Source: Solirubrobacterales bacterium (lineage in GTDB: Bacteria; Actinomycetota; Thermoleophilia; Solirubrobacterales; 70-9). From it: 64,000 nt of DNA. The translations under genes and the position numbers were made by a program. Under the pieces are notes generated by a model that saw only the letters and a list, made by a program, of their open reading frames with translations, had not been told where the DNA came from and did no database searches. Positions 16,219 through 52,246 of the stretch are shown here, in pieces (positions within the stretch are counted from its first letter, which is position 1; each line of letters begins with the position of its first letter). The stretch spans positions 2,295 to 66,294 of the forward strand of contig DASWQL010000005.1 of assembly GCA_036403715.1 (NCBI GenBank), given 5' to 3'.

Positions 16219-16302
16219 GCCGGAGTGGCGGAATTGGCATACGCGATCGACTCAAAATCGATTGCCCTTGCGGGCTTGTGGGTTCGAGTCCCACCTCCGG
16301 CA
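16219..16302 (+). tRNA. tRNA-Leu(CAA)
   Basis: Hand-folded cloverleaf. Acceptor GCCGGAG/CTCCGGC, anticodon arm ATCGA-CTCAAAA-TCGAT, long variable arm, T arm GTGGG-TTCGAGT-CCCAC, discriminator A. No CCA is encoded. Confidence 0.9.
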
Positions 16303-35462: not shown

Positions 35463-35536
35463 CGGGGAGTGGCGCAGTCTGGTAGCGCACTCGGCTGGGG
35501 GCCGAGCGGTCGCAGGTTCAAATCCTGTCTCCCCGA
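35463..35536 (+). tRNA. tRNA-Pro(GGG); integration target of the island
   Basis: Acceptor CGGGGAG/CTCCCCG, anticodon arm CTCGG-CTGGGGG-CCGAG, T arm GCAGG-TTCAAAT-CCTGT. Confidence 0.9.
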
Positions 35537-35538
35537 TT
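35491..35538 (+). repeat. attL: 48-bp direct repeat (3' two-thirds of tRNA-Pro plus 2 nt)
   Basis: TCGGCTGGGGGCCGAGCGGTCGCAGGTTCAAATCCTGTCTCCCCGATT is identical to 46047-46094. Confidence 0.9.
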
Positions 35539-35823
35539 TACGAGATCCAGCTTCGAGAGCGGACTTTGGCTCCCGAAGCGATGGCTCGTTTCATTCTCAG
35601 CGCCCCCTTGGTACCGGCCCTGGTACCGATGCCTGGTCGGCAGGCGAGAATTTCTACGTGGCGCGAAAATCTTTCACGAAAGTTTCCCCAAACCCTGAGG
35701 ATCTGCATATAGTCGTGTCGTAAGTCAAACGAGGTCGTCCTCACCGCGGCGCAAAGAGACGCTGCACGAAAGCGGGACGATTGGACTGCTCCAGACGACC
35801 TCATCAATCGAATAGAGGCCGTT

Positions 35824-36087
35824 ATGTCGAGCATTTCGATGCTGTATCCAGTCGAACCCAAGTCTCGGGCGCGTGGCTCAATCCAAGGCTCTGGGTGGGG
35901 GTATTGGCGATCCGTCTGGGCTGCGTGGTGTCCCACCTGCAGGCAGGAGACGATGCCGTTTCCAAGTGGAATGTGCGGATTTTGCGACACCCCCCTCGGA
36001 GGTCAAGCCACCCGATCAGTCGAGGAACCTGTCCTTCGCGGGGACGAGTTTGTGGCAATTGCAACGTCGTCTGAATTGGCTGCTTGA
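35824..36087 (+). CDS. Putative small zinc-ribbon protein (87 aa)
   Basis: WCPTCRQETMPFPSGMCGFCDTPL gives CxxC-N13-CxxC. AGAGG lies 6 nt before the ATG. The ORF ends 27 nt before the GHKL gene. Several ORFs overlap in other frames, so the call is tentative. Confidence 0.4.
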   Translation: MSSISMLYPVEPKSRARGSIQGSGWGYWRSVWAAWCPTCRQETMPFPSGMCGFCDTPLGGQATRSVEEPVLRGDEFVAIATSSELAA

Positions 36088-36114
36088 ATTCTGCGGCCGG
36101 AAAAGGAGAAGATC

Positions 36115-37911
36115 ATGATCGCCAAACTGGATTCTGATGCAGTTCATAAGCGTCAGCAAGAGCTCGTAGATGACATAAGTGAGGCCGGTTTTGATGTTGG
36201 CCTCACCGTCGGTAAAGCGTTCGTGGAGAGCATTCGCGATATCGGATACCGGTCAACGGGCACGGCCGCCAACGAGCTCATCGATAACAGCGCGCAGGCG
36301 GGTGCCGAGAACGTCCATATCTGCTTCGGATACAGCGACGGCTCTCGCAAGCCCAGTTCAGTCGCCGTCATTGATGACGGCATCGGGATGGTTCCAGGTA
36401 TGACCCGAGCGGCACTCTTGTGGGGGGGGACCGATCGCCACAACAACCGGGACCTGTTCGGACGCTTCGGCTACGGATTGCCATCCGCTTCTGTAAGCCA
36501 AGGTCGCCGGGTGGAGGTGTACTCCAAGCCCGGAAAGGGGGGTTTCCATCGAGCCGTGCTCGATCTCGATGACATCGCTAGCGGAAAGAATCTTTCCAAG
36601 GGTCGAGTGAGCATCCCCAAGCCCGAGAAGGCGAAACTTCCCGAGTTTGTCGTCGATTACATCGCCCAGCAGTTTCCGGGTGGATCTGAGGCGGCGAACA
36701 CCGTGGTCGTCTGGAGCTCTCTAGATCGGCTCACCTTTCGTACGACCGATCGGCTCGAGAATCACCTACTGGAGACCTTCGGCGTCACCTATCGAAACCA
36801 TCTGCGGAAAATCGGGGTGGCTGTCAATGGAAAGCCAGCCGAGCCGGTCGATCCTCTCTTTACGACCGAGGGAGCACGATTCTACGACCTAGATGAGGAT
36901 CGAGCGCAACCGGAAGAGCCCCTGTCGTTCGACGTGAGAGATCGCGACACGAAGAAAGTAATCGGCAAAATTCGCGCCCGCTTCTCGGTGATGCCGCCGT
37001 CCTTCGCAAGTATCGATAAGAAGAAGGAAGCACGCGGCGGGAATGCGAACAAGAGGTTCGCGATCATCAAGGACCACAACGGTCTAATCGTCCTCCGGGC
37101 GGGTAGGCAGATCGATGTCGTGACCAACGGACTTCCGACGGTGTTCGTGAACTACGACCGATACGTCGGCCTGGAGATCGATTTCCCTCCTGCTCTTGAC
37201 GAGTATTTTGGGGTGACTACTCACAAGCAGCAGATCACGTTGTCGGAGCGGATCTTGCAATTGCTCGATGAAAACGGGGTGTGGAAGACGCTTGAGCAGC
37301 TGCGAAAGCGATCGCGTGAGATGCGTGCCGACCTCACCGCGGCGTATGACAGTCCACCAAACGAGGACGACAAGCGGCCGTCAGAGATCGCCATGGAGGA
37401 GGCCGTCGAGTTTGATCCGCCCGAGCCCGAGAGTGAGCGAAAGGCCAAGAAAGAAGAGGAGGGACGTGAGGCGGCTATCGACGACCTCGTATCGAAAGGA
37501 GTATCACGTCAGGATGCCGAACAGGTCGTCGAGACGGTCGAGAAGGATAGGCCCTTTCGCGTTGAAGTTGAGAGCAATCCAGAGGGTCCGTTCTACCGTG
37601 CGGAGTTGCGTGGCGGGCAGGTCGTCCTGCTTGTCAACTCGAAACACCGCTTCTATACCGACGTCTATGCTGCGGCGAGTGGGCCGGACGGAGCGCGGTT
37701 CAGGCAGTCGCTTGAGGTCGTGCTCTTTGTGATGGCGAAGGCAGAGGTCGAGGCTTCGGGGGAGCGGGAGCTCTTCTACAAGAGCGAGCGACAGCTCTGG
37801 TCTTCGCGTCTCACTGTTGCGCTCGCAAAGCTCGGGGACGTAATCGATCTTTCTCCGGAAGAGGCGGAGCCGATCGATGCTTCCGGGGCCGAAGGGGCAC
37901 CTGTGGTCTAG
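36115..37911 (+). CDS. GHKL-superfamily ATPase, HATPase_c_3 / MORC-like (598 aa)
   Basis: Strong RBS AAAAGGAGAAGATC-ATG. Bergerat motifs occur in order: ANELIDNSAQAGA (motif I), VAVIDDGIGM (motif II) and FGRFGYGLPSAS (motif III). The long C-terminal region has an acidic K/E-rich segment. Confidence 0.8.
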   Translation: MIAKLDSDAVHKRQQELVDDISEAGFDVGLTVGKAFVESIRDIGYRSTGTAANELIDNSAQAGAENVHICFGYSDGSRKPSSVAVIDDGIGMVPGMTRAALLWGGTDRHNNRDLFGRFGYGLPSASVSQGRRVEVYSKPGKGGFHRAVLDLDDIASGKNLSKGRVSIPKPEKAKLPEFVVDYIAQQFPGGSEAANTVVVWSSLDRLTFRTTDRLENHLLETFGVTYRNHLRKIGVAVNGKPAEPVDPLFTTEGARFYDLDEDRAQPEEPLSFDVRDRDTKKVIGKIRARFSVMPPSFASIDKKKEARGGNANKRFAIIKDHNGLIVLRAGRQIDVVTNGLPTVFVNYDRYVGLEIDFPPALDEYFGVTTHKQQITLSERILQLLDENGVWKTLEQLRKRSREMRADLTAAYDSPPNEDDKRPSEIAMEEAVEFDPPEPESERKAKKEEEGREAAIDDLVSKGVSRQDAEQVVETVEKDRPFRVEVESNPEGPFYRAELRGGQVVLLVNSKHRFYTDVYAAASGPDGARFRQSLEVVLFVMAKAEVEASGERELFYKSERQLWSSRLTVALAKLGDVIDLSPEEAEPIDASGAEGAPVV

Positions 37912-37937
37912 CTCGGATTGCATAGCTCTATACCTTG

Positions 37938-37961
37938 GGAGGGCGGCTTTGGCCGCCCTCC
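37938..37961 (+). terminator. Hairpin GGAGGGCGGC-tttg-GCCGCCCTCC followed by TTT, between the GHKL and DUF4338-like genes
   Basis: 10-bp perfect stem, 27 nt after the GHKL stop. It could be an intrinsic terminator or an attenuator. Confidence 0.5.
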
Positions 37962-38054
37962 TTTGCAGCTGCGACGGTGAGCGAAATTCCTCCTAAACAA
38001 AAATCCCCTGCAGAGCCAGAAGCCAAGCCGTCCAATGGCTTGGAAGGTCGCGTG

Positions 38055-39212
38055 ATGGCGAAGGGCTTGCTGAGGGCTCGCGTGATCGGAGAGCTTCAGA
38101 GGGCCGGCTTTGTTTACGAGGGCGGGCTCCTGCTGCTTCCCGAGGCGGCTGATCCGAAGGATCTGGTCCGGGGCCTTCACGCGATTCATCGCGAAAGCGT
38201 CCTCGCGAAGAATGCCCAGTTCCTTAACGAGTGGGAGGATCGCCTCCTGGAGGACTTTGCATCTGGGGTTGAAGTCGACCCAACGAAGATTCAGCCCGTC
38301 GTCGAACCGGTTGACTCAACGCGCGAGCGAGCTCTATTTCGGTTTGCGAGTCTTCACTGGAGCGTCCCGGTGTCGCAGGGATATGGGCGGCGAAGTCGTT
38401 TTCTCGTGCGTGATCTCGCAACCGAGAAAATGATCGGGATATTTGCGTTGGGAGATCCTGTCTTCAACCTCGGAGTCAGAGATCGTTTAGTTGGGTGGAG
38501 TCAGCAGGATCGACAAGAGCGGCTGTACAACGTCTTCGACGCTTACGTCTTGGGTGCCGTTGACCCCTATCGCCAGATCATTGGGGGAAAGCTCGTCGCC
38601 CTGCTGGCTCTTGCTGACGAGACCAGTGAGTACCTAGTGAAGAAGTATGCAGGGAAGACAACTGAAATTCTCGGCGAGAAAAAGAAGGCCGATCCTGTTC
38701 TTATCACCACCACTTCATCGATGGGACGATCGTCAATTTATAGCCGTCTCAAGTACAACGATCGGTGGGCATACCGGTCTATCGGGTTTACCGAAGGCTT
38801 TGGGCACTTTCACTTTAGTGACGAGCTCTTCGACGGCCTGATACAGCATCTCCGCGACGCTGGACACGATGTTCGTGGAAACGAATACGGGGAAGGCCCC
38901 AATTGGAAAATCCGCACCATCCGTAGGGCCTTGGAGGAGATCGACCTAAACGGTGACCTACTTCGGCATGGAATCCAACGGGAGGTCTTTGTAGCGCCAC
39001 GAGCGCTTGGGTGGCGCGCGTTTCTTAGAGGGGAAACCGACTACCTTCAGTGGTTCGACTATCCACAGGCTGGCCTAAATGACTTTTGGCGGAGTCGCTG
39101 GGGAGTGCCTCGGGCCGAGAGGGACGATCGGTACTTGGCCCATAATCGCGATGCGATGAGGTTGACGCCGATGTTGGAAGCCATGGAGAAGGAAGGAACG
39201 TCGACCTCCTAG
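38055..39212 (+). CDS. DUF4338-like protein (DruA-type domain)
   Basis: The core HWSVPVSQGYGRRSRFLVRD...IGIFALGDPVFNLGVRDRLVGWSQQDRQERLYNVFDAYVLG...IIGGKLVALL parallels the DUF4338 pattern as I recall it (HYLGY..G..L.YLVRD...LLFGSAAWK.A.RD.FIGW....R...L....NN.RFLILP). ATG 38055 has GGAAGG 7 nt upstream. The track ORF starts earlier, at 37935. Confidence 0.65.
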   Translation: MAKGLLRARVIGELQRAGFVYEGGLLLLPEAADPKDLVRGLHAIHRESVLAKNAQFLNEWEDRLLEDFASGVEVDPTKIQPVVEPVDSTRERALFRFASLHWSVPVSQGYGRRSRFLVRDLATEKMIGIFALGDPVFNLGVRDRLVGWSQQDRQERLYNVFDAYVLGAVDPYRQIIGGKLVALLALADETSEYLVKKYAGKTTEILGEKKKADPVLITTTSSMGRSSIYSRLKYNDRWAYRSIGFTEGFGHFHFSDELFDGLIQHLRDAGHDVRGNEYGEGPNWKIRTIRRALEEIDLNGDLLRHGIQREVFVAPRALGWRAFLRGETDYLQWFDYPQAGLNDFWRSRWGVPRAERDDRYLAHNRDAMRLTPMLEAMEKEGTSTS

Positions 39213-39217
39213 GCTGG

Positions 39218-39841
39218 TCATGCGGGTCCAGGGCGCGTCAGCATCAAAACATCCCACACCATTGATGGCTGCCATCTATCGCCGGATCGCGGATGCGCAA
39301 TGGAGTCTCGATTAAGACCATTGGCGATCTTGGCGAGGCTTGATCCTTGAACCCTCTCCCAGATGATTCGCTGGATGATCCCGTCCTCGCCCAGCCGATT
39401 CTCGGAGTAGTTGTCGGCCGGGAGGGGTTCCGGTTCGATTGGTTGCTCAGCGGATCTGCCCCTTTTTGCGTAGCTAGCGAGAGTCCGGGCAAGTACCGCT
39501 CCGGCGGCGGTGTCCGTATCGATCCCGTCCTCCACCGAAACGATTGACCACCGAGCGCAGAGGGAATCGTCCATTGCGACTGCGACTTCATTCAGCGACC
39601 CGCTCAGCCGAGCGAGGTCGGCAACGATAATGCCGTCCGTCGTGCCGTTAGCTGCGAGCTTGAGTGCGCGTCGCATGCCGCTTCGACCGAGAGTGTCGCG
39701 ACTGTCGGTCATGTCAAAGATCCAAGTCAAGCTCCAATCCTGACGGCGAGCCTCGGCGCGGATCAGGGACCGCTGCCGATGGACGTCCTCGCGGTCCTCG
39801 GTCGCCAGTGGGCGGCAGTACCCGATCATCCGTGATCTCAT
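39218..39841 (-). CDS. Serine-recombinase-fold protein with substituted catalytic residues (probably inactive)
   Basis: The resolvase-like N-domain (IGYCRPLATED..., GIIVADLARLSGS, IVSVEDGIDTD) and a partial 'Recombinase'-domain helix (IANGLNRDSIAHPRSGDRWQPSMVWDVL) are both present. However, YxRVS(T) reads YCRPLAT and DRLxR reads ARLSG. Confidence 0.6.
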   Translation of the reverse strand: MRSRMIGYCRPLATEDREDVHRQRSLIRAEARRQDWSLTWIFDMTDSRDTLGRSGMRRALKLAANGTTDGIIVADLARLSGSLNEVAVAMDDSLCARWSIVSVEDGIDTDTAAGAVLARTLASYAKRGRSAEQPIEPEPLPADNYSENRLGEDGIIQRIIWERVQGSSLAKIANGLNRDSIAHPRSGDRWQPSMVWDVLMLTRPGPA

Positions 39842-40094
39842 CGTTTGACCAAGGGGTTTCGGGCCTCTTGGACTCCCCGCCGGGCAGCAGCTTGTATTTC
39901 TGACTCGCGGTCAACGCCTCGGTCATCACGTGTCCTAGGTGTCCCGGCGTCCCCGGGTTCAAGGCTGCACTCGGTCCACGGCCGGGTGATCGCAGGCAGG
40001 CCGTGAATCGCCGCGGGGCGGCTTCGGAGGCGGGTTCTGTGGCTCATTGCAGTGGTATTGAGATAGCTCCCGGTACCAGCGGTGGTACCGAGGA

Positions 40095-41222
40095 CTACTC
40101 CGAGGCCGTCTCTCGCCACCAGTCGGCTGCCCGTGCAGCTGCTTCCCGGTGGGCCTTCTTGTCGGGGTGCCCGTACTGGTCGATCGTCGTCTGGATGTCG
40201 GCGTGGCCGAGTTGCTGCTGGACGAAGTAGATCGACTCTCCGGCGGCGAGCCAGAGGGTTGCAGCGGTGTGCCTGAGGTCGTGGAGGCGGACGAGAGGGG
40301 GGAGGCCAGCATCCTCGAGGGCGTGGTTGTGGCCGCGTCGTCGAACGTTGTGGCGATTCAGCATCAGTCCTTCCGGGCTCCGGAAGACCAGGTTCGTGAT
40401 GCCGCTGATGCTGGCTTGATCGGCGCGGTGTTCGCGCAGAAGGTTGAGGAGGTAGGGCGCCAGGAGCACCGTCCGGGAGCGGTCGCCCTTCGGCGTGCCG
40501 ATCTCGCCGCCGTCCTTCGCTGCACGGGAGATCTGGACAGCGCTGCCGTCCCAGTCGATGTCGCGCCACTCGAGCGCGATGGCCTCGCCGATCCGCAGTC
40601 CGGCCCCGATCAGCATCTCGGCGAGCGGGCGGTACCAGGTCTCGCAGGCGTCGAGATAGTGAACGGCTTCCTCCCGGTTCAGATGCAGCATCGTCGGGCG
40701 CTCGTAGGGAAGCTCCAGCGGGTGATCGCGGTCGTCGTTCTTTGCCGTGTTGCTACCGAGGACGCCTTCGCGTACCGCCGCTCCGAGGATCTGCCGCAGT
40801 GGGATCAGGCTGTCGTTGACGGTCTTGCGACTGAGCTTTGTGTCCTGATCCTGTTCGGCGAGATAAGCCTCGATCTTCGCTCGGGTAATCTGCCGCAGCT
40901 TCAGGGCTCCGAAGGCGGGTTTCAGTCGCTTGCGGAGGTGAATCTCGTAGTCGCGATAGGTCGCAGCCTCGACGCGCGGGCGCTTGCGCTCCAGCCAGCG
41001 ATCCGCGACTTCGTTGAAGGTCTCGGTGCTGGTGGAGCGCTGCGCGCCTCGCTGGACAGCAGCGAGGGCCTCATTGAGCGTTCGCTGGGCCTCCTGCTTC
41101 GAGGGGCCGACTGCCTGCTTGACCTGAGTGCCGTCCGCCGTCCGGTACTTGATGTCGAAGACGACGCCTTTGGTCTTCGTCCTCCGCTTAATGATCGTGC
41201 CGCGAGCCATCGCGTTACCCAC
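40095..41222 (-). CDS. int: Tyrosine-type site-specific integrase
   Basis: Contains R...HDLRHTAATLWLAAGESIYFVQQQLGHADIQTTIDQYGH (R-H-R-Y catalytic region) and a SAM-like N-domain. Confidence 0.9.
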   Translation of the reverse strand: MGNAMARGTIIKRRTKTKGVVFDIKYRTADGTQVKQAVGPSKQEAQRTLNEALAAVQRGAQRSTSTETFNEVADRWLERKRPRVEAATYRDYEIHLRKRLKPAFGALKLRQITRAKIEAYLAEQDQDTKLSRKTVNDSLIPLRQILGAAVREGVLGSNTAKNDDRDHPLELPYERPTMLHLNREEAVHYLDACETWYRPLAEMLIGAGLRIGEAIALEWRDIDWDGSAVQISRAAKDGGEIGTPKGDRSRTVLLAPYLLNLLREHRADQASISGITNLVFRSPEGLMLNRHNVRRRGHNHALEDAGLPPLVRLHDLRHTAATLWLAAGESIYFVQQQLGHADIQTTIDQYGHPDKKAHREAAARAADWWRETASE

Positions 41223-41444
41223 TCACCTGCGGCCGGGGGTCCAGGTCGCCCGTTGTTCCTCCAGCCAGGAGTCGAGATCGGCCCTCACGAACCGCAGTGG
41301 GCCACCGGGACCGCCGAGGCGGATTGACGGTACGCGCCCATCCGCAGCTGCTGCGTAGACCCAGGTGCGAGAGACGGCGAGAAGCTTGCAGACTTCGGCG
41401 GGCTTCATCAGCGTCGGATCGGCGACCAGGCTCATAGCGCGCAC
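41223..41444 (-). CDS. xis: Excisionase / AlpA-type HTH_17 DNA-binding protein
   Basis: LMKPAEVCKLLAVSRTWVYAAAADGRVPSIRLGG..LRFVRADLDSWL. It lies immediately upstream of int. Confidence 0.8.
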   Translation of the reverse strand: MRAMSLVADPTLMKPAEVCKLLAVSRTWVYAAAADGRVPSIRLGGPGGPLRFVRADLDSWLEEQRATWTPGRR

Positions 41445-41538: not shown

Positions 41539-42834
41539 TCACGAGTCCAGACGTAGGTCGTCGAGGCTTGGTAGGACCCCGCGATCCTGTGGCAAGGGCT
41601 CGCCGACTTTGATCAGGCGGGGCTGTCCACGCTGACTTTCGACCTCCTGGAGGAGATCGAGTTTGATCGCTCCCCTTGTGCGACGAGTGACGGTGGTCCG
41701 GTGAATGCCGAGATGTGCGGCGATTTCAGCGAGTTTCACCGGCTCGCCAGCCACACCGACGTGGTACTGCAGGTGATCGACCGCTTCGACGGTCTCGCGG
41801 ATCTGCGCCGGAACCGCTTGGCCAGAGCTGTAAGCCAATATGTCGGCGACCAGCTCATGGACGGCGGCATAGTCATCCACCGCCGCGACGATCTGGCCGT
41901 CGCGATCCCGCTCGCGCCGGGTTTGGTGGAGCAGGGCGTGAGCTTCCACCAGCCCTAGGACGGCCTGGAAGTCGCGACGCATGCGAGTAGCAGAGTGATC
42001 ACAGGCAGCCGCAACTCGTCCCGCGAAGGGCACTACAACTGTGTGCTCTCCGCTCCCGATCAGGCGGTCGAGCGCGTGGAATTCGCTGAGATCCGGTTCA
42101 AAGGTCTTCCCTTCGGCGGCGCGAGCAACGCTTTCCAGGATCGCCTTGGTCGCCGCAGGTCCGTCGTCGACATTGACAGAGAACAGCCGCGTGCCTAGCT
42201 CGTAGTCGATTCTCCCTGCACTGGAGATGATCAGGCCGGTCGGTCCATCCTTTTCGAGTTTCACGGTGCGACGTCCGCCATCGAAGTCGGTGTACTCGTG
42301 GACGATTTTTCCCTCGCTGAGGAGGCAACGGACCAAATATGCGGTGTTCTTGTTCGCTAGCGCGTCTGCCTCGTAGAGAACGATCATGCGGTGGACGAAC
42401 TCCTCGCCTGAGTAGGCGAGGGCTTTCTCGCTCATCGAGGTCAGGACGTAGGTCGCCTCGGATGAGGCGAAATCGAGTGCCCTCGTAATCGCGTAGCTCT
42501 TCCCCGCCGACGACTCACCCCTGACCGCGACCGACACCGGCTTGGCGAGATGTCTGGTGTAGAGGGCAAGCACCAGGAGCATGACAATGCGAGTGTTGCC
42601 CGCGAACGTCCCGGTCGCCCGAAGCATCTCCGCGACTGCGCCGAGGACGTCGCTCGATTGGAGTAGCTTCGGGCATTGGGCCGCGTGATCTGTCGGGGCT
42701 GGTGACGAGTCACCGTTCTCTTCAACTTCGGTATCGAGCCGCTCATCTTCGTCTCGGCGGAGTTCCTCGCGCCATTCCTGTTCCTTCTGCTTCTTCTTCT
42801 CGTTCATTGTCTGCCTCATTCGGATTAGTGACAT
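41539..42834 (-). CDS. P-loop NTPase, putative replication/helicase protein of the element, with a C-terminal HTH
   Basis: Walker A VRGESSAGKSYA, Walker B HRMIVLYEAD, C-terminal LAEIAAHLGIHRTTVTRR. The start is taken at ATG 42834 (AGGAG 11 nt upstream); the track ORF extends to 42993. Confidence 0.6.
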   Translation of the reverse strand: MSLIRMRQTMNEKKKQKEQEWREELRRDEDERLDTEVEENGDSSPAPTDHAAQCPKLLQSSDVLGAVAEMLRATGTFAGNTRIVMLLVLALYTRHLAKPVSVAVRGESSAGKSYAITRALDFASSEATYVLTSMSEKALAYSGEEFVHRMIVLYEADALANKNTAYLVRCLLSEGKIVHEYTDFDGGRRTVKLEKDGPTGLIISSAGRIDYELGTRLFSVNVDDGPAATKAILESVARAAEGKTFEPDLSEFHALDRLIGSGEHTVVVPFAGRVAAACDHSATRMRRDFQAVLGLVEAHALLHQTRRERDRDGQIVAAVDDYAAVHELVADILAYSSGQAVPAQIRETVEAVDHLQYHVGVAGEPVKLAEIAAHLGIHRTTVTRRTRGAIKLDLLQEVESQRGQPRLIKVGEPLPQDRGVLPSLDDLRLDS

Positions 42835-42854
42835 CGGTATGGCTGCTCCTCTGC

Positions 42855-42908
42855 TGTGCACGCACAGCCGCACACCCGGATTTGGCGCCGTGCGCCTGTG
42901 CGTGCACA
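42855..42908. repeat. 13-bp inverted repeat TGTGCACGCACAG ... CTGTGCGTGCACA just upstream of the replicase gene
   Basis: The arms are at 42855-42867 and 42896-42908, with a 28-nt spacer. The repeat lies 21-74 nt upstream of the proposed start. Confidence 0.7.
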
Positions 42909-43232
42909 TCGGGATAGGGCACCGTTGGCCCTGTCGCCACCGATGTCGATTTCTGGGGTCTTGGTCCTCTTTCTGCGCCGGAGCCGAGCGCATCTAGAGG
43001 CGCCGGCCAGAAATTCCTGGAATTTGCGGGAGAAGGGAGCGCTACAGAGGTCCGTAGCTAGACCCGTGAGTCACTTTCCGTTTGACGGCAAGGGACGAGT
43101 TGGGCCGAGAAAATGAGGCGTGTTCACGACAGGACTTGCCACGGCAGGCGGCACCAAAGGATGGCGGTGGCTGGCGAACTGGCCGAAATCACCGGAGCAC
43201 CTAGGTCCTATAGACACCGATGGCTCCGGGCC

Positions 43233-44983: not shown

Positions 44984-45226
44984 TTGAAAGGCAGCTTGAT
45001 GACGGCTAAATCCCACGAGTTCGAGGTCGTGTTGCAGCCCGAAGAGGAGGGCGGCTTCAGCGTGTCTGTCCCGGCCCTGCCGGGCTGCCATACCCAGGGC
45101 GAGACTCACGATGAAGCCTTGGCGATGGCCAAGGACGCCATCGAGGGCTATCTCGAGGTGCTGGAGCAAGAGGGGCGTCCCCTGCCTCAACCAGCGTTGA
45201 TCGAGCGGGTTACCGTCGCCGCGTGA
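44984..45226 (+). CDS. hicB: HicB-family antitoxin
   Basis: FEVVLQPEEEGGFSVSVPALPGCHTQGETHDEALAMAKDAIEGYLE is the classic HicB N-domain. The start may instead be ATG 44999. Confidence 0.85.
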   Translation: MKGSLMTAKSHEFEVVLQPEEEGGFSVSVPALPGCHTQGETHDEALAMAKDAIEGYLEVLEQEGRPLPQPALIERVTVAA

Positions 45227-45453
45227 GCAGTCGGCTGCCGTCGGTTCGACCCCGGCAGCTGATTCGGGTTCTGGAGCAGAAGGGCTGGCGCCTTGCTCGT
45301 TCGAAGGGCAGCCATCATCACTTCACCCATCCCGATAGCCGCAACATCGTCACGGTTGCGGTTCACGCCAAGGACATCAAGCGTGGGACGCTCAGCGGCA
45401 TTCTCGCCGACGCGGGCATCGATCGCGATGAATTCCTCAGCTTGCTGAAGTAG
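45223..45453 (+). CDS. hicA: HicA-family mRNA interferase toxin
   Basis: RQLIRVLEQKGWRLARSKGSHHHFTHPD...VTVAVHAKDIKRGTLSGIL. The GTG start overlaps the hicB stop (GTGA). Confidence 0.85.
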   Translation: MSSRLPSVRPRQLIRVLEQKGWRLARSKGSHHHFTHPDSRNIVTVAVHAKDIKRGTLSGILADAGIDRDEFLSLLK

Positions 45454-45619
45454 CAAGAGCGCGGTACCGCTTCTGGTACCGAACGCATCGTCCGATGGCT
45501 CCGATGTGGCTGACGCCGGGGACGCGGGGACGCCTGGGACGCGCCCGGACGTAGATCACACTCCCACTTGGTCGGCTGCGGAGCTACAGCCGTTCCACGG
45601 AAGAGCCGGACGCCGCGAC

Positions 45620-45880: not shown

Positions 45881-46046
45881 GGGCAAGAGCCTACGCGGCG
45901 CTGCTCTGTGAGGACTGCATTCTCGAATATGCAACCTGGTACCGCTCGTGGTACCGGATGCATCGTCCAATGGCTCCGTCGATTCCGTTCACGGGGACGC
46001 GGGGACGCGTGGGGACGCGGCCGGAAGCATCTGGCGCTCGCCTCGG

Positions 46047-46094
46047 TCGGCTGGGGGCCGAGCGGTCGCAGGTTCAAATCCTGTCTCCCCGATT
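46047..46094 (+). repeat. attR: second copy of the 48-bp tRNA-Pro 3' segment
   Basis: Identical to 35491-35538. No 5' half of a tRNA precedes it. Confidence 0.9.
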
Positions 46095-46204
46095 GCAAAT
46101 TTTTCTCGCATGGCTTCGCATGGCCACGCGGGCGGCGGATCAAGTCCGGCTCGCGGGCCCGGCCTCCCTGTTTACGGGTGCAGCGCTTCGACTTTGATGG
46201 CGTT

Positions 46205-46224
46205 GATCTGCGCCGTCGCAGATC
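46205..46224. terminator. Hairpin GATCTGCG-ccgt-CGCAGATC 15 nt downstream of the nucleotidyltransferase gene (minus strand)
   Basis: 8-bp perfect stem with no clear U-tract. Confidence 0.3.
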
Positions 46225-46238
46225 GCGACCTCAAAGAA

Positions 46239-46715
46239 TCAGTCGGTGGCGGCGTCCAGATCCTCTATGTCAGCGAGATCTCGAGTCCGTCCGGCCGCTC
46301 GCTTCATCTCCCTCAGATCGTTGCGCGAGCAGACCCACACCGTCGATCCGAGGATCTCGGCCTCGACGGCCCGCGACCGCAGCTCCTCGAAGTCCGGTAC
46401 GCCGTCTAGGCCTTGGACCACATCGAGTCTCCCGAGGTCGGTCTCAATGGCGACCTGATCGCCATCGGCCAGTGCCGCCGCGATCGAGAACGGAGTACCG
46501 AGCAATGCTTCGCCCCGCTGAACATGTCCGCCGGCGGCCACTGCGACCTCGGCGACTCGCTTGATGTTCCCGGAGGCCGTGGCAATAACGACGTCGACGT
46601 CCTTGGTGCCCCGCACGACCCCCCAAGCATTGAGGGCGAGTCCGCCCACTACGACGAATTCAACGTCTGCCTCGGCCAAGCGCCGCAGCAGCTCGTCGAA
46701 GGCCGGCTCGGTCAA
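46239..46715 (-). CDS. Minimal nucleotidyltransferase-fold protein (DUF6036/AbiEii-like)
   Basis: FDELLRRLAEADVEFVVVGGLALNAWGVVRGTKDVDVVI contains the GG...G..R.T.DxD NTase motif. The TTG start at 46715 overlaps the stop of the upstream small ORF (TTGA). The N-terminal part of track ORF 46239..46955 looks non-coding. Confidence 0.6.
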   Translation of the reverse strand: MTEPAFDELLRRLAEADVEFVVVGGLALNAWGVVRGTKDVDVVIATASGNIKRVAEVAVAAGGHVQRGEALLGTPFSIAAALADGDQVAIETDLGRLDVVQGLDGVPDFEELRSRAVEAEILGSTVWVCSRNDLREMKRAAGRTRDLADIEDLDAATD

Positions 46716-46879
46716 TTCTTGAGCGCGGCGCCGGTGAATCGCAGCAGCTTGTGGCTGAGCGCGATGCCTTCGGAGAGGTTCGTACTGAGAGAGCGCCGGG
46801 CGTCTTCGCGCAGCCTCTGGACCCGCAAGGCCTCGGCCTCCGCCGCAGGTGATGGACTGCTCTTCTTGCGCCGGTCCAT
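46712..46879 (-). CDS. Small upstream partner ORF (55 aa), antitoxin-like
   Basis: MDRRKKSSPSPAAEAEALRVQRLREDARRSLSTNLSEGIALSHKLLRFTGAALKN. It is translationally coupled to the NTase gene. The start at ATG 46879 is chosen within track ORF 46712..46981. Confidence 0.45.
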   Translation of the reverse strand: MDRRKKSSPSPAAEAEALRVQRLREDARRSLSTNLSEGIALSHKLLRFTGAALKN

Positions 46880-47013
46880 ACGGATTGATGCTAGCGCTGG
46901 TCGGGTCGCGAAACCGGACAGCCCGATGACGAGGCCGAGCAGTTGGTTCAAACACCGTCCAGTTAAGGCGATCTCAGACAATAAGTTCCGACGCGTTTGC
47001 CATCCTCCGAGAG

Positions 47014-47500
47014 ATGGCAGATCGTGAGCAAAAGGCGGCCTCGCTCGAGATGATCGCAGCGCCCGCGATCGAGAAACGGATCTACGTCATCCCGCGGGCG
47101 CCAGGTGATGCTCGATGAGGACTTAGCCGATCTCTACAGCGTCGAGACGAAGCGGTTGATCGAGCAGGTGAAGCGCAACCTGGAACGCTTTCCGGACGAC
47201 TTCATGTTTCAGCTCCGCAAAGACGAGGCAGCGGCTTTGAGGTCGCGGATTGCGACCTCAAACGTAGGTCGCGGCGGGCGCCGCTATGCCCCCTACGTCT
47301 TCACCGAGCAGGGCGTGCCCATGCTTTCCTCCGTCCTGCGGAGCAAGACGGCTATCGCCGTGAACATCGAGATCATGCGGGCGTTTGTCGAGCTACGCCG
47401 TGTCGCCAGCTCCTACGCAGCGATCGAGAAGAGGCTGGAGCAGATCGAACGTGGGATGGGCGAGCACGACGAGGAGCCAAAGCCTCGGTCAACAGCGTGA
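47014..47500 (+). pseudogene. ORF6N (KilA-N-like) domain gene, copy 1, with an apparent +1 frameshift
   Basis: ATG 47014 gives MADREQKAASLEMIAAPAIEKRIYVIPRAPGDAR*. Deleting one C in ATCCCGCGGG (about 47089) restores IEKRIYVIRGRQVMLDEDLADLYSVE..., which is colinear with copy 2. The downstream frame is track ORF 47105..47500. Confidence 0.6.
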
Positions 47501-47591
47501 CGCGGTTCAAATACCGTCTGGTTAAGGCGATGTAGACAAAAGCTTCCGGCCTGTTTGCGTCCCCGAGAAGGCGATCGAGAAGCGGATCTTT

Positions 47592-48089
47592 GTGGTCCGC
47601 GAACGGCAGGTCATGCTTGACGAAGATCTGGCGGCTCTCTACGGCGTTGAGACCAGAGTCCTGGTTCAGCAGGTCAAACGAAACGCAAAGCGCTTCCCGG
47701 CGGACTTCATGTTCCAGCTGACGAAGGCCGAGGCTGAGGCTTTGAGATCACAATTTGTGATGTCAAACGAGGGCCGGGGTGGCCGCCGGTATGCCCCCTA
47801 TGTCTTCACGGAGCAAGGTGTCGCGATGCTCTCGGGGGTGCTCCGGAGCGATCGGGCAATTGCGGTAAATATCGAGATCATGCGTGCGTTCGTCGAGCTG
47901 CGCCGCGTCGCCGGCTCCTTCCAGGAGCTCCAGAAGCGGCTCGATCAGATGGAACTGGACATCGGCGCCCGCCTGAGCGAGCACGATGAGCAGTTGCGCC
48001 TGATCTTCGAGGCGCTGCGGCAGCTCATCGCGCCGCCGCCTCGTGCGAAGCGCCCCGTTGGCTTCAGGGTTCGCCCGGGCGACGAGTAG
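47592..48089 (+). CDS. ORF6N (KilA-N-like) domain protein, copy 2
   Basis: VMLDEDLAALYGVETRVLVQQVKRNAKRFPADFMFQLTKAEAEAL...RRYAPYVFTEQGVAMLSGVLRS..AIAVNIEIMRAF. The conserved IEKRIF segment lies upstream of the first available start (GTG 47592), so the N-terminus may be truncated. Confidence 0.7.
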   Translation: MVRERQVMLDEDLAALYGVETRVLVQQVKRNAKRFPADFMFQLTKAEAEALRSQFVMSNEGRGGRRYAPYVFTEQGVAMLSGVLRSDRAIAVNIEIMRAFVELRRVAGSFQELQKRLDQMELDIGARLSEHDEQLRLIFEALRQLIAPPPRAKRPVGFRVRPGDE

Positions 48090-48192
48090 TCCGGCAGCCA
48101 GCAAGAGTCTTGACGCGGTTCAAATACCGTCCAGTCAGGCCGATTTATCGCTGATCGCCATTTCCGATCGACGGTGTCCTCGAGTCCACGGT

Positions 48193-48666
48193 TCAGTTCG
48201 GGGTCGAGGGGTCTTCCTCGACGAGTGCGGCGAGGTTGTCGAGGGCCATGCGGGTGCCGATGTCGTTGTCTTGAGCGGATACGCCGCTGGGAATTCCCTC
48301 GTGGACGATGACCACATCGGTTCCACCATCGGCATCGGTGAGAGTCGTGGTGATCGTCATCTCCCCTTGGAACTCGGAATCGGCGGTCTCGAACTCGATC
48401 ACCTCGACCACCTTTCGATCGGGGACGAGCTGGGCGAAGTGGCCCCCGTAGGTGTCGGTTCGCGGCGAGCTCTTGCCGGCTGCGGTTGGCATTTCGTAAC
48501 TGAGAGACACCCGGAAGGTGCCGCCCTCGCGGGCGTCGAGGTGGTGGACGACGCAGCTCATGCCGTCGGGAAACCTCCATTCGGCAATCGCCTCTGGGTC
48601 AAGGAGCGCTCGGTAGAGCGCCGACCGGGGAGCGCGGATGTGTCGGGCGGTCCGGGTGGAAGACAC
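48193..48666 (-). CDS. SRPBCC-superfamily protein (AHSA1/START-like)
   Basis: RHIRAPRSALYRALLDPEAIAEWRFPDGM...GGTFRVSL...GGHFAQLVPDRKVVEVIEFE. Confidence 0.7.
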   Translation of the reverse strand: MSSTRTARHIRAPRSALYRALLDPEAIAEWRFPDGMSCVVHHLDAREGGTFRVSLSYEMPTAAGKSSPRTDTYGGHFAQLVPDRKVVEVIEFETADSEFQGEMTITTTLTDADGGTDVVIVHEGIPSGVSAQDNDIGTRMALDNLAALVEEDPSTPN

Positions 48667-48795
48667 GTCCGCAGGCTAGCTGGCAAAAGCGCCGGTTCAA
48701 AGGAGGCCATTGAGCTGGATCGGGAGAGCGCGAAGGGCCCTCGAGCACCAGCGGGAGGGAGCTGTCCCCGGCGAATTCGTCGCGCTGTATCTATT

Positions 48796-49116
48796 TCAGC
48801 TGCCCGGCGGCCGATAGCCGGCTGAGCGTTCCGTCGCGGCGTCAACTTCCTCGGGCGTAAGCAACTGGACCGTCTTGACCGTGGCACCGCCCGATCCGTT
48901 TACGGCAAGAGCGACGGCCGTGGCGGCCTCGTTGTCAGGGAGCTCCACAGTCACATAGGAGTCGACGTCACCGAAGGCGAAATAGAAGCTCTCGAGCTTG
49001 CCACCAAGGCCCTCGGCCATATCGGCTATCGCGTCGCGCCTACTACTCCCACCTTTGCTGCTGATGCCCTCAACGCCCTCCGGCGTATACGCAGCCTCGA
49101 ACAGGTACTTGGGCAT
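48796..49116 (-). CDS. GYD-domain protein
   Basis: MPKYLFEAAYTPEGVEGI...GGKLESFYFAFGDVDSYV...ATVKTVQLLTPEE is the typical GYD family layout. Confidence 0.7.
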   Translation of the reverse strand: MPKYLFEAAYTPEGVEGISSKGGSSRRDAIADMAEGLGGKLESFYFAFGDVDSYVTVELPDNEAATAVALAVNGSGGATVKTVQLLTPEEVDAATERSAGYRPPGS

Positions 49117-49256
49117 GACAATCTCCTTCCGTTAGGCGGCTCTGCACGAGCATCCCATCCGCTGACGGCAGGCGCAAGCGGAGACTCTCGCTGCATAGGG
49201 TCCCGAGAAGAGGAGGGTGGAGCGGGAGCGAAGTCTCGTCTGTGCCCGCCACTCGG

Positions 49257-49748
49257 TCAGGGCTCTCGTGCGGTGCCCCTCCGCAGTAGATAAATGGCGG
49301 CGCCGAAGGCGAGCGCAAGGCCGGCCAGCACCCCCAACTCCAGCAGCAGGCCATTAGGGGGCGGGCCGGGTGCCTGCTCGATATGGGCGGTGACGACGAC
49401 CACCCGCCTCACCACCGCGATCAGGCCGACGAGCAGGAATGGCTCGGCGGATATCTCCCCCTCATAGAGCACGATCGACAAGGTGTGCAGCAGCTCCGCG
49501 ACGATCAGCAGCAGGAGCACGCGATCAAGTAGGCGTAGCCCCATCTGAATCGCGCCTTCCCCGTCCAAGACCCCTTCGACGAGCTCCTTCGTGGTCCCGT
49601 AGATCACGCCGAACGCCGCCAGGCCGAGCAGCACGGCGACAATCAGGTAGACGAGCTGCTGGAACCTCTTCAGGATTCCCATCGAAATCTCCGGGTGGGG
49701 GCCGCCGCTCTGGCGCGGCTCCGACCCGGATGGGTGGGCATCGGTCAC
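49257..49748 (-). CDS. PsiE-like (phosphate-starvation-inducible E family) membrane protein
   Basis: Four TM segments, with LLLLIVAELLHTL and LVGLIAVVRRVVV patterns. The start may be the internal ATG at 49682. Confidence 0.55.
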   Translation of the reverse strand: MTDAHPSGSEPRQSGGPHPEISMGILKRFQQLVYLIVAVLLGLAAFGVIYGTTKELVEGVLDGEGAIQMGLRLLDRVLLLLIVAELLHTLSIVLYEGEISAEPFLLVGLIAVVRRVVVVTAHIEQAPGPPPNGLLLELGVLAGLALAFGAAIYLLRRGTAREP

Positions 49749-50075
49749 CGATACCTGCCGGCCGTGCCGCTGTCTATGGACATTCCAAGCCGGCGATCTC
49801 CGTTGGAGCCGGCGGCAGCGCCTCCATGCGGACTCTCTCTTGCGCCTCGACGGGCATGGCTCGCTCTCGTTCGCCTACCTCGGGGACGTCCGGCGTGCTG
49901 TCTTCGCTCTACCCTGCGGTCGCGAGCCCAACCTCCGGTCGGGTGGCACATCCGACATTGACCCCGGCGGGGTGGGGAAGAGGTCGGAAGGGACGGCAGA
50001 GCTCACTCATGGCAAAGGGGTGCAAGGGGCGGGCCGCCCGGCGGGCGGCCAAGAGCCTTCGGCTGTTGTCGTCAG

Positions 50076-50351
50076 TTAGCGCTTGACTATGTTGTGGATC
50101 TCCAAGATTTCTGGCTCCCCGGGGTCGATGCCGACCTCAGCGAGGACAGGCATCAGCCGCTCGCCGAATGCCTCGAGCTGCTGCCGGGAATCCCAGACCT
50201 CGCTGACGCGAAGGCTTCCCTCGCTGCCGAAACAGACGTGGTAGTCGAGTCCATCGGGAGGGAAGTGACCAGCGGCTTCGAGCTTGCGGATGGACTCGTC
50301 GTACTGGGCGGCCGTCAGGGCAGAGGGGACAAAACGGATAAGTACGCTCAT
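50076..50351 (-). CDS. Small cytoplasmic protein (91 aa), ferredoxin-like/ABM-type fold suspected
   Basis: Track ORF with protein-like composition (MSVLIRFVPSALTAAQYDESIRKLEAAGHFPPDGLDYHVCFG...). Confidence 0.5.
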   Translation of the reverse strand: MSVLIRFVPSALTAAQYDESIRKLEAAGHFPPDGLDYHVCFGSEGSLRVSEVWDSRQQLEAFGERLMPVLAEVGIDPGEPEILEIHNIVKR

Positions 50352-50453
50352 CGAGCTCCTCCTTGATTGGGTCTACTGACCTTATCCACGGAGTCGCGAT
50401 TCGGCCAGGCCTCGCTGGGTTGGGCGCCGGGTGTGTCATCAGAATGAAGCGCG

Positions 50454-51062
50454 ATGCGGCCCAACCCGTTATTTGCCAGCGACGATCCCGACGTCGTTCG
50501 CCAACTCATCCGCGACAACCCTTGGGCCGTTCTGGTCAGCCAGACCGATGGCGACCTCGTCGCCTCCCACTACCCGATCCTGCTCGACGACGAGGCGCCG
50601 GAGTTGACGATCGTGACGCACCTTGGCAAGCCCGACGACCAGATCCACAGGCTGACCGACGGAGAGCTTCTGGTCATCGTGCAGGGGCGGCACGGCTGTA
50701 TCTCGCCGAGTTGGTACCGGCCCGACCCGCGGAATGTGCCCACCTGGAACTTCAGCGTTGCGCACTGCTATGGAGCGCCCGAGATACTCGACCACGAGGA
50801 GAATCTCGAAGTCCTGACCAGGTTGGTCGAGCGTTTCGAGCGCGATGTCGATGAGCCGGCGCACCTCGATCGGCACGATGGCGCCAAGATCGCCGCGGGA
50901 ACCGTCGGCATACGACTGCCGGTCTCTCGCTTCATCTGCAAGCGCAAGCTGAGTCAGAACAAGGACCCGGCCACCCGGCGACAGGTCATCGATGCGCTGC
51001 GCAAACCGGGGCCGTACAACCATCCCCAGCTCGCCGAGGAAATGGAGCAGGCGCTGGACTGA
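50454..51062 (+). CDS. PaiB-family FMN-binding negative transcriptional regulator
   Basis: NPWAVLVS...LVASHYPILLD...TIVTHLGKPD...WNFSVAHCYG...FICKRKLSQNK. Confidence 0.75.
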   Translation: MRPNPLFASDDPDVVRQLIRDNPWAVLVSQTDGDLVASHYPILLDDEAPELTIVTHLGKPDDQIHRLTDGELLVIVQGRHGCISPSWYRPDPRNVPTWNFSVAHCYGAPEILDHEENLEVLTRLVERFERDVDEPAHLDRHDGAKIAAGTVGIRLPVSRFICKRKLSQNKDPATRRQVIDALRKPGPYNHPQLAEEMEQALD

Positions 51063-51087
51063 AAATCCGCCACCATCCTGCGGGTAG

Positions 51088-52113
51088 CTACTTGTACGCG
51101 ATGGCCGCGCTCGCCGGTCCCGCGAGCGGCACGACTTCTATCTCCCTGAACCCCACCTCTTCGCACCACCCGGCAAAGTCGCCGCCGGTGAAGTCGAAGG
51201 CGTCGCCGAACTCGATCAGCATGTTGAGCGACATCAGCAGCCCGAAGGCGTTCTCGCGTCGGGCGTCGTCGATGAGGTTCTCCACCACGATGTAGGCCCC
51301 GCCGTCTGGCAGGGCGTCGTACACGTTCCTGATCAAGTGCATCTTGCGGTCGAGGTTCCAGTCGTGGAGGATCATTCCCATCGTGATCACGTCGGCCTCG
51401 GGTAGGGGGTCGCTGAAGAAGTCACCGGCGGTTGCCGTCACCCGATCGCCCAGGCCGGCGGCCTCGATCGTCCGCCTGGCGATCGGCTCGACGACCGGCA
51501 GGTCGAAGCTGGTGCAGCGCATGTGGGGAACGCGGTCGGCGACGGTGATCGACAGCTGACCGGTTGCGCCGCCCACGTCGCAGAGGGTCTCGTACTTCGA
51601 GAAGTCGAACTTCTGCGCCAGCGCGTTGAACGGGCCCTGGGAGATTCCGGCCATCGCGTTCATGAACTGCTCGAGCCTCGCCGGGTCGCTGTACAGCCCC
51701 TCGAACATCGAGGTGCCGGTGCGCTTGATCTCGTTCTGGGGCTCCCCGCTCTGCAGAGCCTCGGTGAGATCGGCCCAGAACGGATACAGCCGTGCATTTG
51801 CCATCTCGAGGATCCCGCCGATGTAGGCGGGGCTCGCCTTGTCGAGAAAGACGGCGGTCGCGTCCGTGTTGCGGTAGGCGGCACCGCTCCCCTCGCCGTC
51901 GCGATCGAGCAGGCCGAGGGCGACGAGCGCGTCGGGGAAGTCCGGGATCGCGCGAGCATGCAGACCCAGCGCCTCGCCCAACTGCGGACCGGTCATCGAC
52001 TCGCGCCCCAGCTTGGTGAACAGCTCCAGCTCGACCGCCGACAGCAGGGTCTTCGAGCCCCAGAACCCCATACCGACCTGCATGATCTGTGAAGGATCGA
52101 CCTGCTCCGACAT
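51088..52113 (-). CDS. Class I SAM-dependent O-methyltransferase with an N-terminal dimerisation domain
   Basis: The N-terminus GFWGSKTLLSAVELELFTKL is a wHTH dimerisation domain. It also has the SAM motif LCDVGGATGQLS and HILHDW-like MILHDW. Confidence 0.8.
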   Translation of the reverse strand: MSEQVDPSQIMQVGMGFWGSKTLLSAVELELFTKLGRESMTGPQLGEALGLHARAIPDFPDALVALGLLDRDGEGSGAAYRNTDATAVFLDKASPAYIGGILEMANARLYPFWADLTEALQSGEPQNEIKRTGTSMFEGLYSDPARLEQFMNAMAGISQGPFNALAQKFDFSKYETLCDVGGATGQLSITVADRVPHMRCTSFDLPVVEPIARRTIEAAGLGDRVTATAGDFFSDPLPEADVITMGMILHDWNLDRKMHLIRNVYDALPDGGAYIVVENLIDDARRENAFGLLMSLNMLIEFGDAFDFTGGDFAGWCEEVGFREIEVVPLAGPASAAIAYK

Positions 52114-52246
52114 TCTCGCCGCCCCCGTCCCTTGTTGGCCCTGCGTCGACCGACACTAGCCGAGAGGGGGCGCGGCAACCACTTGTCGCGCCCACGGCGC
52201 GGCCTATTTGCGGATGCAGACCCCGAACATCGAGGAGGGCAACTTG

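Follow-up and report, generated by a model that had tools for sequence, protein, structure and literature searches.

A conserved operon of a MORC-like GHKL ATPase gene and a DruA-family gene in a tRNA-Pro island of a Solirubrobacterales bacterium

Type I Druantia reportedly consists of the proteins DruABCDE (Doron et al. 2018), with DruA, a DUF4338 protein, as its signature component; DruE, its defining helicase, is a large YprA-family protein with a DUF1998/MZB domain. Searches of open-access full text and bioRxiv returned neither a mechanism for this system nor a function for DruA, and the recent mechanistic papers on Druantia deal with the type III pair DruH-DruE. A second body of work concerns the prokaryotic MORC and paraMORC ATPases, whose described partners are SF2 helicases, endonucleases and methylases in restriction-modification contexts (Iyer, Abhiman and Aravind 2008, PMC2292703); the word acetyltransferase does not occur in that paper. 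Here, we analyzed a 64-kb stretch of a Solirubrobacterales contig (DASWQL010000005.1; the window, at its full length) and found that an integrative island at a tRNA-Pro gene carries a gene for a MORC/Hsp90-like GHKL ATPase directly upstream of a DruA gene, and that the two form a conserved operon under purifying selection. The operon and its immediate neighbors comprise the following open reading frames (ORFs), with lengths in amino acids (aa):

35824-36087 (+), CxxC-N11-CxxC Zn-ribbon-like protein, 87 aa, upstream gene of the operon (ORF and Cys pattern)
36115-37911 (+), MORC/Hsp90-like GHKL ATPase, 598 aa, with a Bergerat fold, a transducer-like middle domain and a C-terminal domain of ~220 aa
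38055-39212 (+), DruA-family (DUF4338) protein, 385 aa, with a predicted GNAT-like acyltransferase fold (PF14236, PADLOC and the AlphaFold2 (AF2) model)
39218-39841 (-), catalytically inactive serine-recombinase-like protein, 207 aa, convergent on druA (Resolvase, E=7.8e-15; Recombinase, E=1.3e-4)

The pairing was evaluated from both sides. A DruA profile scan of 185,579 species genomes yielded 80 loci (L004-L083), and GHKL was present in 13 of them, that is, in 10 loci with a DruA of at least 55% identity and in three from Chloroflexota. At all 10 close loci, which come from Solirubrobacterales, other Actinomycetes, Streptomyces, Nitriliruptorales and Acidimicrobiia, the GHKL gene lies immediately upstream of druA on the same strand. 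Complementarily, metagenomes were scanned with a GHKL profile, counting loci in which the GHKL had at least 35% identity and was followed by 4 kb of sequence or more; a DUF4338 ORF followed in 16 out of 17. By a same-contig proxy, counted by hand, 38 of the 73 top GHKL matches lie on a contig equal in size to that of a top DruA match. The identities of both proteins rise and fall in step across loci, the reading frames share 4-8 nt in four loci (L105, L168, L170 and L172), and their ratios of nonsynonymous to synonymous substitution rates (dN/dS) are 0.05-0.19 against four orthologues, with dS saturated. The suggestion in a preliminary description of this DNA that the two genes might be conserved neighbors was therefore confirmed. 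In the window, the GHKL start codon is preceded by AAGGAG, and the longest ORF of druA (37935-39212, +) would encode 425 aa; homologues and public gene calls use the ATG at 38055, giving 385 aa.

The preliminary description had assigned the ATPase and DUF4338 identities from a handful of motifs (ELIDNSAQAGA, DDGIGM and GRFGYGLPSAS in the former; GRRSRFLVRD, FALGDPVFNLGVRDRLVGW and GGKLVALL in the latter), all of which are present in the translated ORFs, and both assignments held up. For the 598-aa protein, Pfam supported the GHKL assignment (HATPase_c_3, E=4.3e-15), and the best sequence match of the family profile in the PDB was MORC2 (6e-11). Foldseek aligned its AF2 model (pLDDT 90) with TRAP1/Hsp90 over the full length and with MORC2, MORC3 and MORC4 over the ATPase-transducer module, at E-values of about 1e-13; the alignments with the MORC modules cover 405-469 columns at a target-normalised TM of 0.49-0.56. 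Across 116 homologues, D57, N58, D87, G89, G91, G116, R117, G119, G121 and K371 are invariant and E54 is retained in 98%, which places motif I (ExxxN; E54, N58), motif II (DxGxG; D87, G89, G91) and the glycine-rich ATP lid of motif III (G116, R117, G119, G121) in the protein. The invariant K371 lies within a TTxKQQ motif and is a candidate for the phosphate-sensing Lys of an S5-fold transducer domain. Since the ATPase motifs and K371 are kept in 98-100% of these homologues, the enzyme should be active.

The C-terminal region had been described as free of any nameable domain, and Pfam and phmmer agree. Pfam searches to E=5 on four diverse C-terminal segments gave no match, and phmmer against 1.84 billion representatives returned the ~220-aa domain exclusively at the C terminus of its own family (296 clusters); confined as it is to one family, its context gives no hint. 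We considered a His-Me finger (beta-beta-alpha, with N508 and H511) as the C-terminal effector and dropped it, there being no conserved His or Asp in the first strand. The GHKL domain family comprises about 300 representative clusters at 50% identity and ranges over Actinomycetota, Chloroflexota, Planctomycetota and alphaproteobacterial plasmids. Phage records contributed two remote GHKL matches in IMG/VR and two in GenBank phages and, given these four remote matches, we rejected a phage-borne origin: the pair is not typically a phage gene.

Remoter GHKL relatives (26-32% identity; L134, L141, L144 and L150-L165) are flanked on one side by a PbeA-like helicase and on the other by a DrmC/PLD-like protein, with an SspC-like gene alongside. 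These PbeA-, DrmC- and SspC-like neighbors mark them as a sister ATPase family in phosphorothioate-associated restriction clusters.

The partner protein matched PF14236 over profile positions 4-297 of 297 (E=1.5e-73; 248 bits against a cut-off of 27) and the PADLOC DruA1 model at E=1e-119, so that the DUF4338 core noted earlier in the third ORF extends over the full family profile. Searches of the PDB with its sequence gave no matches. Its AF2 model (pLDDT 90) returned, among the 50 Foldseek PDB matches listed, mostly GNAT and histone acetyltransferases, all of them weak (best E=4e-3, TMt 0.4-0.55). GNAT entries were also returned from BFVD, and DUF4338 has been described as a GNAT domain (PMC10853773). 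A conserved loop, R173-Q-[IL]-I-G177-G178-K179, is located at beta4-alpha3, where GNATs bind the pyrophosphate of CoA.

Stronger structural matches of the DruA model came from giant viruses. Three uncharacterised BFVD proteins, A0A3G4ZXG3 (Faunusvirus), A0A5K0UAJ3 (Yasminevirus) and A0A3G4ZRA1 (Dasosvirus), aligned at E=1e-15 and TMq 0.64, far better than any solved structure, and in two of the three the match is a domain within a protein of ~1,200 aa. We had not expected to meet DUF4338-like proteins in viruses of the Klosneuvirus type. Separately, a 701-aa DruA homologue on a 27,926-nt JGI contig (P0046) carries an additional C-terminal region of ~280 aa with a nucleotidyltransferase-like GS...DxD motif, which is either a real fusion or run-through into a neighboring MNT/HEPN-type gene.

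We then compared the locus with Druantia. The window resembles type I in its full-length DruA, and related GHKL-DruA loci are linked to DruE and to DruB/C-like genes; unlike type I, the island lacks DruB, DruC, DruD and DruE, and the constant partner of DruA is the MORC-like GHKL ATPase, which we found in no published Druantia definition. Searching the 64-kb window by tblastn with two DruE proteins gave no match, and no DruE lies within 10 kb of the pair in six further loci (L166-L171). PADLOC models for DruB, DruC, DruD and DruE matched none of the seven island ORFs scanned, all long ones included; the same models recognise DruB and DruD in control loci. The preliminary description was thus right to report that DruB-E, a helicase and a methylase are missing here. 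Most other DruA homologues of the genome scan are encoded in operons with DruE, and across the 80 loci DruA occurs in at least seven distinct arrangements:

DruA-B-C-D-E (canonical)
DruA, 955-aa protein, DruD, DruE
DruA, 387-aa protein, 684-aa protein
DruE, DruA, 520-aa protein, 850-aa protein
DruE, PD-(D/E)xK protein, DruA (other Solirubrobacterales)
410-aa protein, 550-aa protein, DruA (Chloroflexota and candidate-phyla bacteria)
GHKL, DruA

Several distant relatives bridge the last of these to the larger systems. On plasmid NZ_CP083555 of Leisingera sp. S132, two consecutive GHKL genes are followed by a long DUF4338 protein, DruE (E=0) and a NERD helicase. L030 reads DruA, sigma, GHKL, DruE, and L103 extends to DruB- and DruC-like genes. 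No more than a few kb separate DruE from GHKL in L114, L124, L125, L127, L130 and L140; five of these six also encode a full long-form DruA, and L127 has a truncated ORF of the DruA cluster. The long DruA model of PADLOC (PDLC00001) spans these long-form proteins end to end, and the neighboring ATPase is without a model of its own. In a rough neighbor-joining tree, the GHKL-linked DruA proteins of Actinomycetota group together as a single clade, whose sister is the Solirubrobacterales clade linked to DruE and the PD-(D/E)xK protein. Compared with four of the GHKL-containing Druantia-like loci (NZ_CP083555, L103, L114 and L124), the window shares the order of GHKL then DUF4338, a GHKL protein that is 40-47% identical and the same C-terminal domain. 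Those loci have a long DruA of ~670 aa, often a second GHKL paralogue of ~500 aa together with a sigma-70-like gene, and DruE nearby, whereas the window has a short DruA, one GHKL, the Zn-ribbon gene and no helicase.

The fuller forms read sigma70-like gene, GHKL, (GHKL2), DruA, (DruB/C-like genes, DruE helicase). In most relatives the usual upstream gene is sigma-70-like (regions 2 and 4, 190-250 aa), and in the actinobacterial clade of the window this gene is replaced by the Zn-ribbon gene and DruB-E are lost. Because relatives carry the same GHKL and DruA together with DruE and DruB/C-like genes, we regard the cassette as a reduced branch of Druantia type I diversity. The earlier remark that this combination was not recognised as a named system stands insofar as the pairing has no PADLOC model; it needs amending in that the family sits with DruE and DruB/C-like genes elsewhere.

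Among loci outside Solirubrobacterales, we saw the sigma-70-like gene upstream of GHKL many times (L084-L111, L020, L054, L010 and L030). One locus of the order sigma, GHKL, GHKL2, long DruA (L168) has, right after druA, a gene with a weak HNH_5 match (15425-16231; E=6.7e-4), a candidate that could be the missing nuclease of some variants.

The carriers of the pair are diverse. In Streptomyces pseudogriseolus it resides in an actinomycete integrative and conjugative element (AICE; FtsK/SpdB/RepSA/Xis/Int), next to a ScoMcrA-like restriction gene. Elsewhere it was found in an element with integrase, Replic_Relax and methylase genes, on a contig resembling an integrative and conjugative element (ICE) with TraG and Replic_Relax, in an island bounded by a large serine integrase with a tRNA-Met gene alongside, in a prophage-like block and, on the Leisingera plasmid, beside DruE and the NERD helicase. 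Islands whose GHKL and DruA are 68-74% identical have integrases that are only ~30% identical. As the integrases diverge to this extent and the pair does not, the module behaves as exchangeable cargo.

Two neighborhoods contained further genes. In an Acidimicrobiia locus (L170, 12944-16209), the pair adjoins a Mom-family gene and a divergent second GHKL gene on the opposite strand. In a Solirubrobacterales locus (L166, 5692-8190), the neighbor encodes an 832-aa protein with DCD/dUTPase-like domains.

On balance, and with moderate confidence, we favor the reading that GHKL and DruA constitute a two-protein conflict module related to Druantia, with a MORC-like clamp, driven by ATP, that would work together with a GNAT-fold transferase. 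In its favor stand the domain identities, the intact ATPase motifs, the conservation of the operon under purifying selection, the mobile-element settings and the DruE linkage seen in relatives. Judged from its genomic context, its role is most likely in conflict with other mobile DNA, as an anti-phage or anti-plasmid defence that would benefit both island and host. By analogy with MORC2 and Hsp90, ATP binding may dimerise the ATPase, which would then clamp or compact a nucleic-acid or protein client. The family-specific C-terminal domain might dock DruA, and DruA might transfer an acyl group to the trapped target, which could be the DNA of the invader or else a protein or tRNA that its replication requires. 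In the fuller systems, such a sensing or marking step would be coupled to the DruE helicase and associated nucleases; in the reduced form, inhibition would come from the mark or the clamp itself.

Several observations weigh against this conflict module. No recognisable nuclease, toxin or other effector was identified in the module of the window, and the C-terminal domain of the ATPase matches nothing. The GNAT assignment draws on weak Foldseek scores (best E=4e-3) and one paper (PMC10853773). The conserved DruA loop departs from the canonical Q/RxxGxG/A acyl-CoA motif, and transferase activity is a prediction. The neighbor-joining tree that relates the pair to the DruE-linked clade is rough. 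The defence role follows guilt by association, several neighborhoods hold housekeeping or toxin-antitoxin genes only, and the frequent sigma-factor partner could point instead to a transcriptional function.

This last point bears on a different account, which we consider unlikely yet worth keeping in mind, namely that the pair serves the element itself and regulates island biology or the rivalry between the island and co-resident elements, through silencing, copy control, exclusion or the neutralising of host defences, rather than protecting against phages. The pair is always located within integrative or conjugative elements or plasmids or at their edges, many lineages have a sigma-70-like gene in front of it, and eukaryotic MORCs are reported to silence DNA through compaction. 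However, the carriers are unrelated (tyrosine integrases, a serine integrase, AICE, ICE and plasmid), and the divergence of their integrases next to well-conserved GHKL and DruA speaks for exchangeable cargo rather than a core element function. Moreover, relatives of the pair form part of Druantia operons, and Druantia serves to defend the host.

We judge it quite unlikely that the pair makes up one half of a split Druantia-like system, the half that senses or marks, and is inactive alone and dependent on a DruE helicase, together with its nuclease, encoded elsewhere in the genome. The relatives with GHKL and DruA beside DruE would fit such a division, as would the Solirubrobacterales loci that carry DruE, the PD-(D/E)xK protein and a DruA of the sister clade (L012 and L014-L016). 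Those DruE loci, however, already own a DruA. The absence of DruE from the window and from the surroundings of the pair in the six further loci speaks against the split as well, and so does the fact that the pair rides small islands (10-20 kb) that are self-mobile and would seldom encounter a matching DruE.

A bolder form of the conflict module, which strikes us as rather improbable, makes GHKL-DruA a self-sufficient immune module that works without nuclease or helicase: a sigma-like or Zn-ribbon adaptor would target the clamp, and the trapped invader DNA or phage takeover protein would be acylated and thereby silenced or marked, not cut. If true, bacteria would have a counterpart to the silencing of transposons by MORC proteins, and DruA, the type I signature protein, would acquire a biochemical role.

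Very improbable, in our view, is a stress or transcription module outside genetic conflict, in which a sigma-like or Zn-ribbon factor, a chaperone-like GHKL protein and an acetyltransferase modify host proteins: the full-length alignment with Hsp90/TRAP1, the common sigma-like partners and the general knowledge that GNAT enzymes often acetylate proteins are in its favor, but the distribution is patchy, horizontally transferred and tied to mobile elements, and DruA is directly homologous and linked to Druantia components. Equally, the absence of DruB-E, the adjoining dead recombinase and a GC content that marks the DNA as foreign might suggest a decaying remnant of a type I operon that lost druB-E and no longer functions, an explanation already disfavored and with next to no credence left, given that both ORFs are intact with all catalytic motifs retained, that their dN/dS values are low as stated above, and that the pair, likewise without a helicase, is found in 10 or more genomes belonging to several orders of actinobacteria.

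Of what the favored two-protein module brings together, the components (DruA and MORC-like GHKL ATPases) are already known. The pairing, the sigma or Zn-ribbon accessory and the helicase-less form were not found in PADLOC v2, NCBIfam or the open-access and bioRxiv literature, where no paper mentions DUF4338/PF14236 together with HATPase_c_3/PF13589; pairing and helicase-less form are thus apparently undescribed. DruA accordingly has a second, very frequent partner in a dedicated ATPase of the MORC/Hsp90 type, accompanied or not by a sigma-like factor, in what is a widespread candidate system that present annotation tools would overlook. The link of MORC-type ATPases to genome defence would extend from restriction-modification into an acyltransferase context, and the persistence of the pair under purifying selection without a helicase provides a minimal, two-gene handle on DruA function.

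Beyond Druantia, no described system accounts for the pair. Phage Mu Mom, which acylates adenine in DNA, and the TacT/AtaT-type toxins, which acetylate charged tRNA, are GNAT-fold enzymes of genetic conflict. By analogy, DruA would share with them a GNAT-like fold and a mobile-element or defence setting; no sequence similarity to them was detected, and DruA is much larger, with 385 aa and N- and C-terminal extensions. The ATPase resembles the prokaryotic MORC/paraMORC proteins and eukaryotic MORC2-4 in having a Bergerat ATPase, followed by a putative transducer-like domain, and differs in its private ~220-aa C-terminal domain and its GNAT-fold partner. Neither an SF2 helicase nor an endonuclease or methylase was found in the island of the window, and DruE is adjacent only in distant relatives.

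Besides DruA, PADLOC scans of the island proteins reported a weak MzaB-like N terminus. The N-terminal ATPase domain of the GHKL protein does resemble MzaB (PADLOC, E=3.3e-13; NCBIfam, E=4e-20), yet the NCBIfam match covers residues 37-256 only, scores 71.6 bits where the equivalog cut-off is 850, and no further Mza component is present. Other PADLOC v2 matches of the GHKL and Zn-ribbon proteins were PDC-S42 (E=0.0029) and REase_II (E=0.0043), both partial. On the PADLOC and NCBIfam scores we rejected Mza, Tiamat, Dazbog and PDC candidates, and these protein-level scans mapped the pair onto no other PADLOC model, in line with the novelty proposed at the outset.

The small gene upstream of the ATPase gene had been described as a CxxC-N13-CxxC ORF; the actual spacing is CxxC-N11-CxxC. 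The name Zn ribbon rests on this Cys pattern, as the sole Pfam match of the 87-aa ORF was DZR_2 at E=0.06. Orthologues with 58-74% identity and all four Cys retained immediately precede the GHKL gene in L004, L005, L007 and L011, and dN/dS values of 0.09-0.16 against these four orthologues (dS saturated) identify the ORF as a real gene. A search of 5.8 billion proteins yielded 11 clusters, restricted to the closest clade, and several of these are on contigs equal in size to contigs of GHKL matches. The earlier placement of a Zn-ribbon ORF in front of the pair is therefore correct as regards the gene, which is a lineage-specific accessory rather than a general feature, most relatives having the sigma-70-like gene there. 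We also considered whether the protein might be a degenerate sigma factor and rejected this, having found no similarity.

The convergent recombinase-like protein had been called catalytically degenerate, and rightly so. It carries Leu in place of the catalytic Ser (YCRPL instead of YARVS), Gly in place of the second Arg of the RLSR/RLxR motif, and stops after a fragment of the Recombinase domain; the Ser of Y-x-R-V-S and the full set of RLxR arginines that a serine recombinase requires are therefore not present. Orthologues with the same Leu (39-40% identity) were located at three loci:

L004, 11077-11883
L005, 11116-11787
L011, 11137-11850

As the Leu is kept in four diverged copies, the sequences suggest a domesticated, non-catalytic DNA-binding role rather than a fresh pseudogene. 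The gene accompanies the pair in Solirubrobacterales islands only (three besides the window) and is missing from most GHKL-DruA loci. It was accordingly rejected as a core component and fits better as a trait of the Solirubrobacterales island lineage.

The island itself is an integrative element of ~10.5 kb bounded by exact 48-nt repeats, with the following features besides the four genes above; HTH denotes helix-turn-helix:

35463-35536 (+), tRNA-Pro(GGG), the integration target (ARAGORN; Rfam tRNA, 63.3 bits)
35491-35538, attL, a direct repeat of 48 nt made up of the 3' portion of tRNA-Pro, exact copy of 46047-46094
46047-46094, attR, the other copy of the 48-nt repeat (repeat search)
40095-41222 (-), tyrosine integrase of the island (Phage_integrase, E=1.8e-23; SAM-like N-terminal domains)
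41223-41444 (-), excisionase-type HTH protein (HTH_17, E=1.1e-11; TIGR01764, 37.5 bits against a cut-off of 28.8)
41539-42993 (-), 484-aa protein with a Walker-A-like GESSAGKS and a C-terminal HTH (ORF and sequence; weak HTH matches)
44984-45453 (+), HicB-HicA toxin-antitoxin pair, near attR (HicB_lk_antitox, E=6.7e-14; HicA_toxin on the public gene call)
35610-35627, 40072-40089, 45463-45480 and 45938-45955, four exact copies of GGTACC-N6-GGTACC

The 48 nt at the 3' end of tRNA-Pro recur exactly at 46047-46094, which establishes the extent of the island and shows that the preliminary description had correctly read attL at this tRNA gene and the cassette as the first cargo. With direct repeats duplicating the 3' end of the tRNA, a tyrosine integrase and an excisionase-type HTH protein, the island has the hallmarks of a tRNA-targeting integrative element. 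Its gene order is Zn-ribbon, GHKL, druA, dead recombinase, integrase, excisionase, P-loop/HTH protein, then small ORFs and HicAB. The 484-aa P-loop/HTH protein, for which a weak MTBMA_p00010_2nd match is recorded on the public gene call, possibly functions in replication or maintenance. All GGTACC-N6-GGTACC copies of the window fall within the island, one near attL, one just downstream of int and two near attR, and the motif occurred 0 times in 100 shuffles; from their sequence and placement, the copies are candidate integrase arm-type or regulator binding sites.

GC content is 56-59% per kb over 36-39 kb, against flanks of ~70%, and the minimum of the whole window (0.560) falls at 38-39 kb, matching the earlier remark that the cassette is its most AT-shifted part. 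Rfam returned two tRNAs and no regulatory RNA in the window, and promoter-like and terminator-like sites were at or near chance level there.

Beyond attR, GC content is still low (61-66%) across 46100-52200. This segment carries a DUF6036 nucleotidyltransferase gene, two tandem ORF6N-domain genes (300-nt repeat, 47092/47597) and three copies, at 46939, 47498 and 48111, of a 37-nt repeat whose GGTTCAAAT core resembles a tRNA T-arm. Possibly, the segment represents an older, second insertion that used this tRNA hotspot as well.

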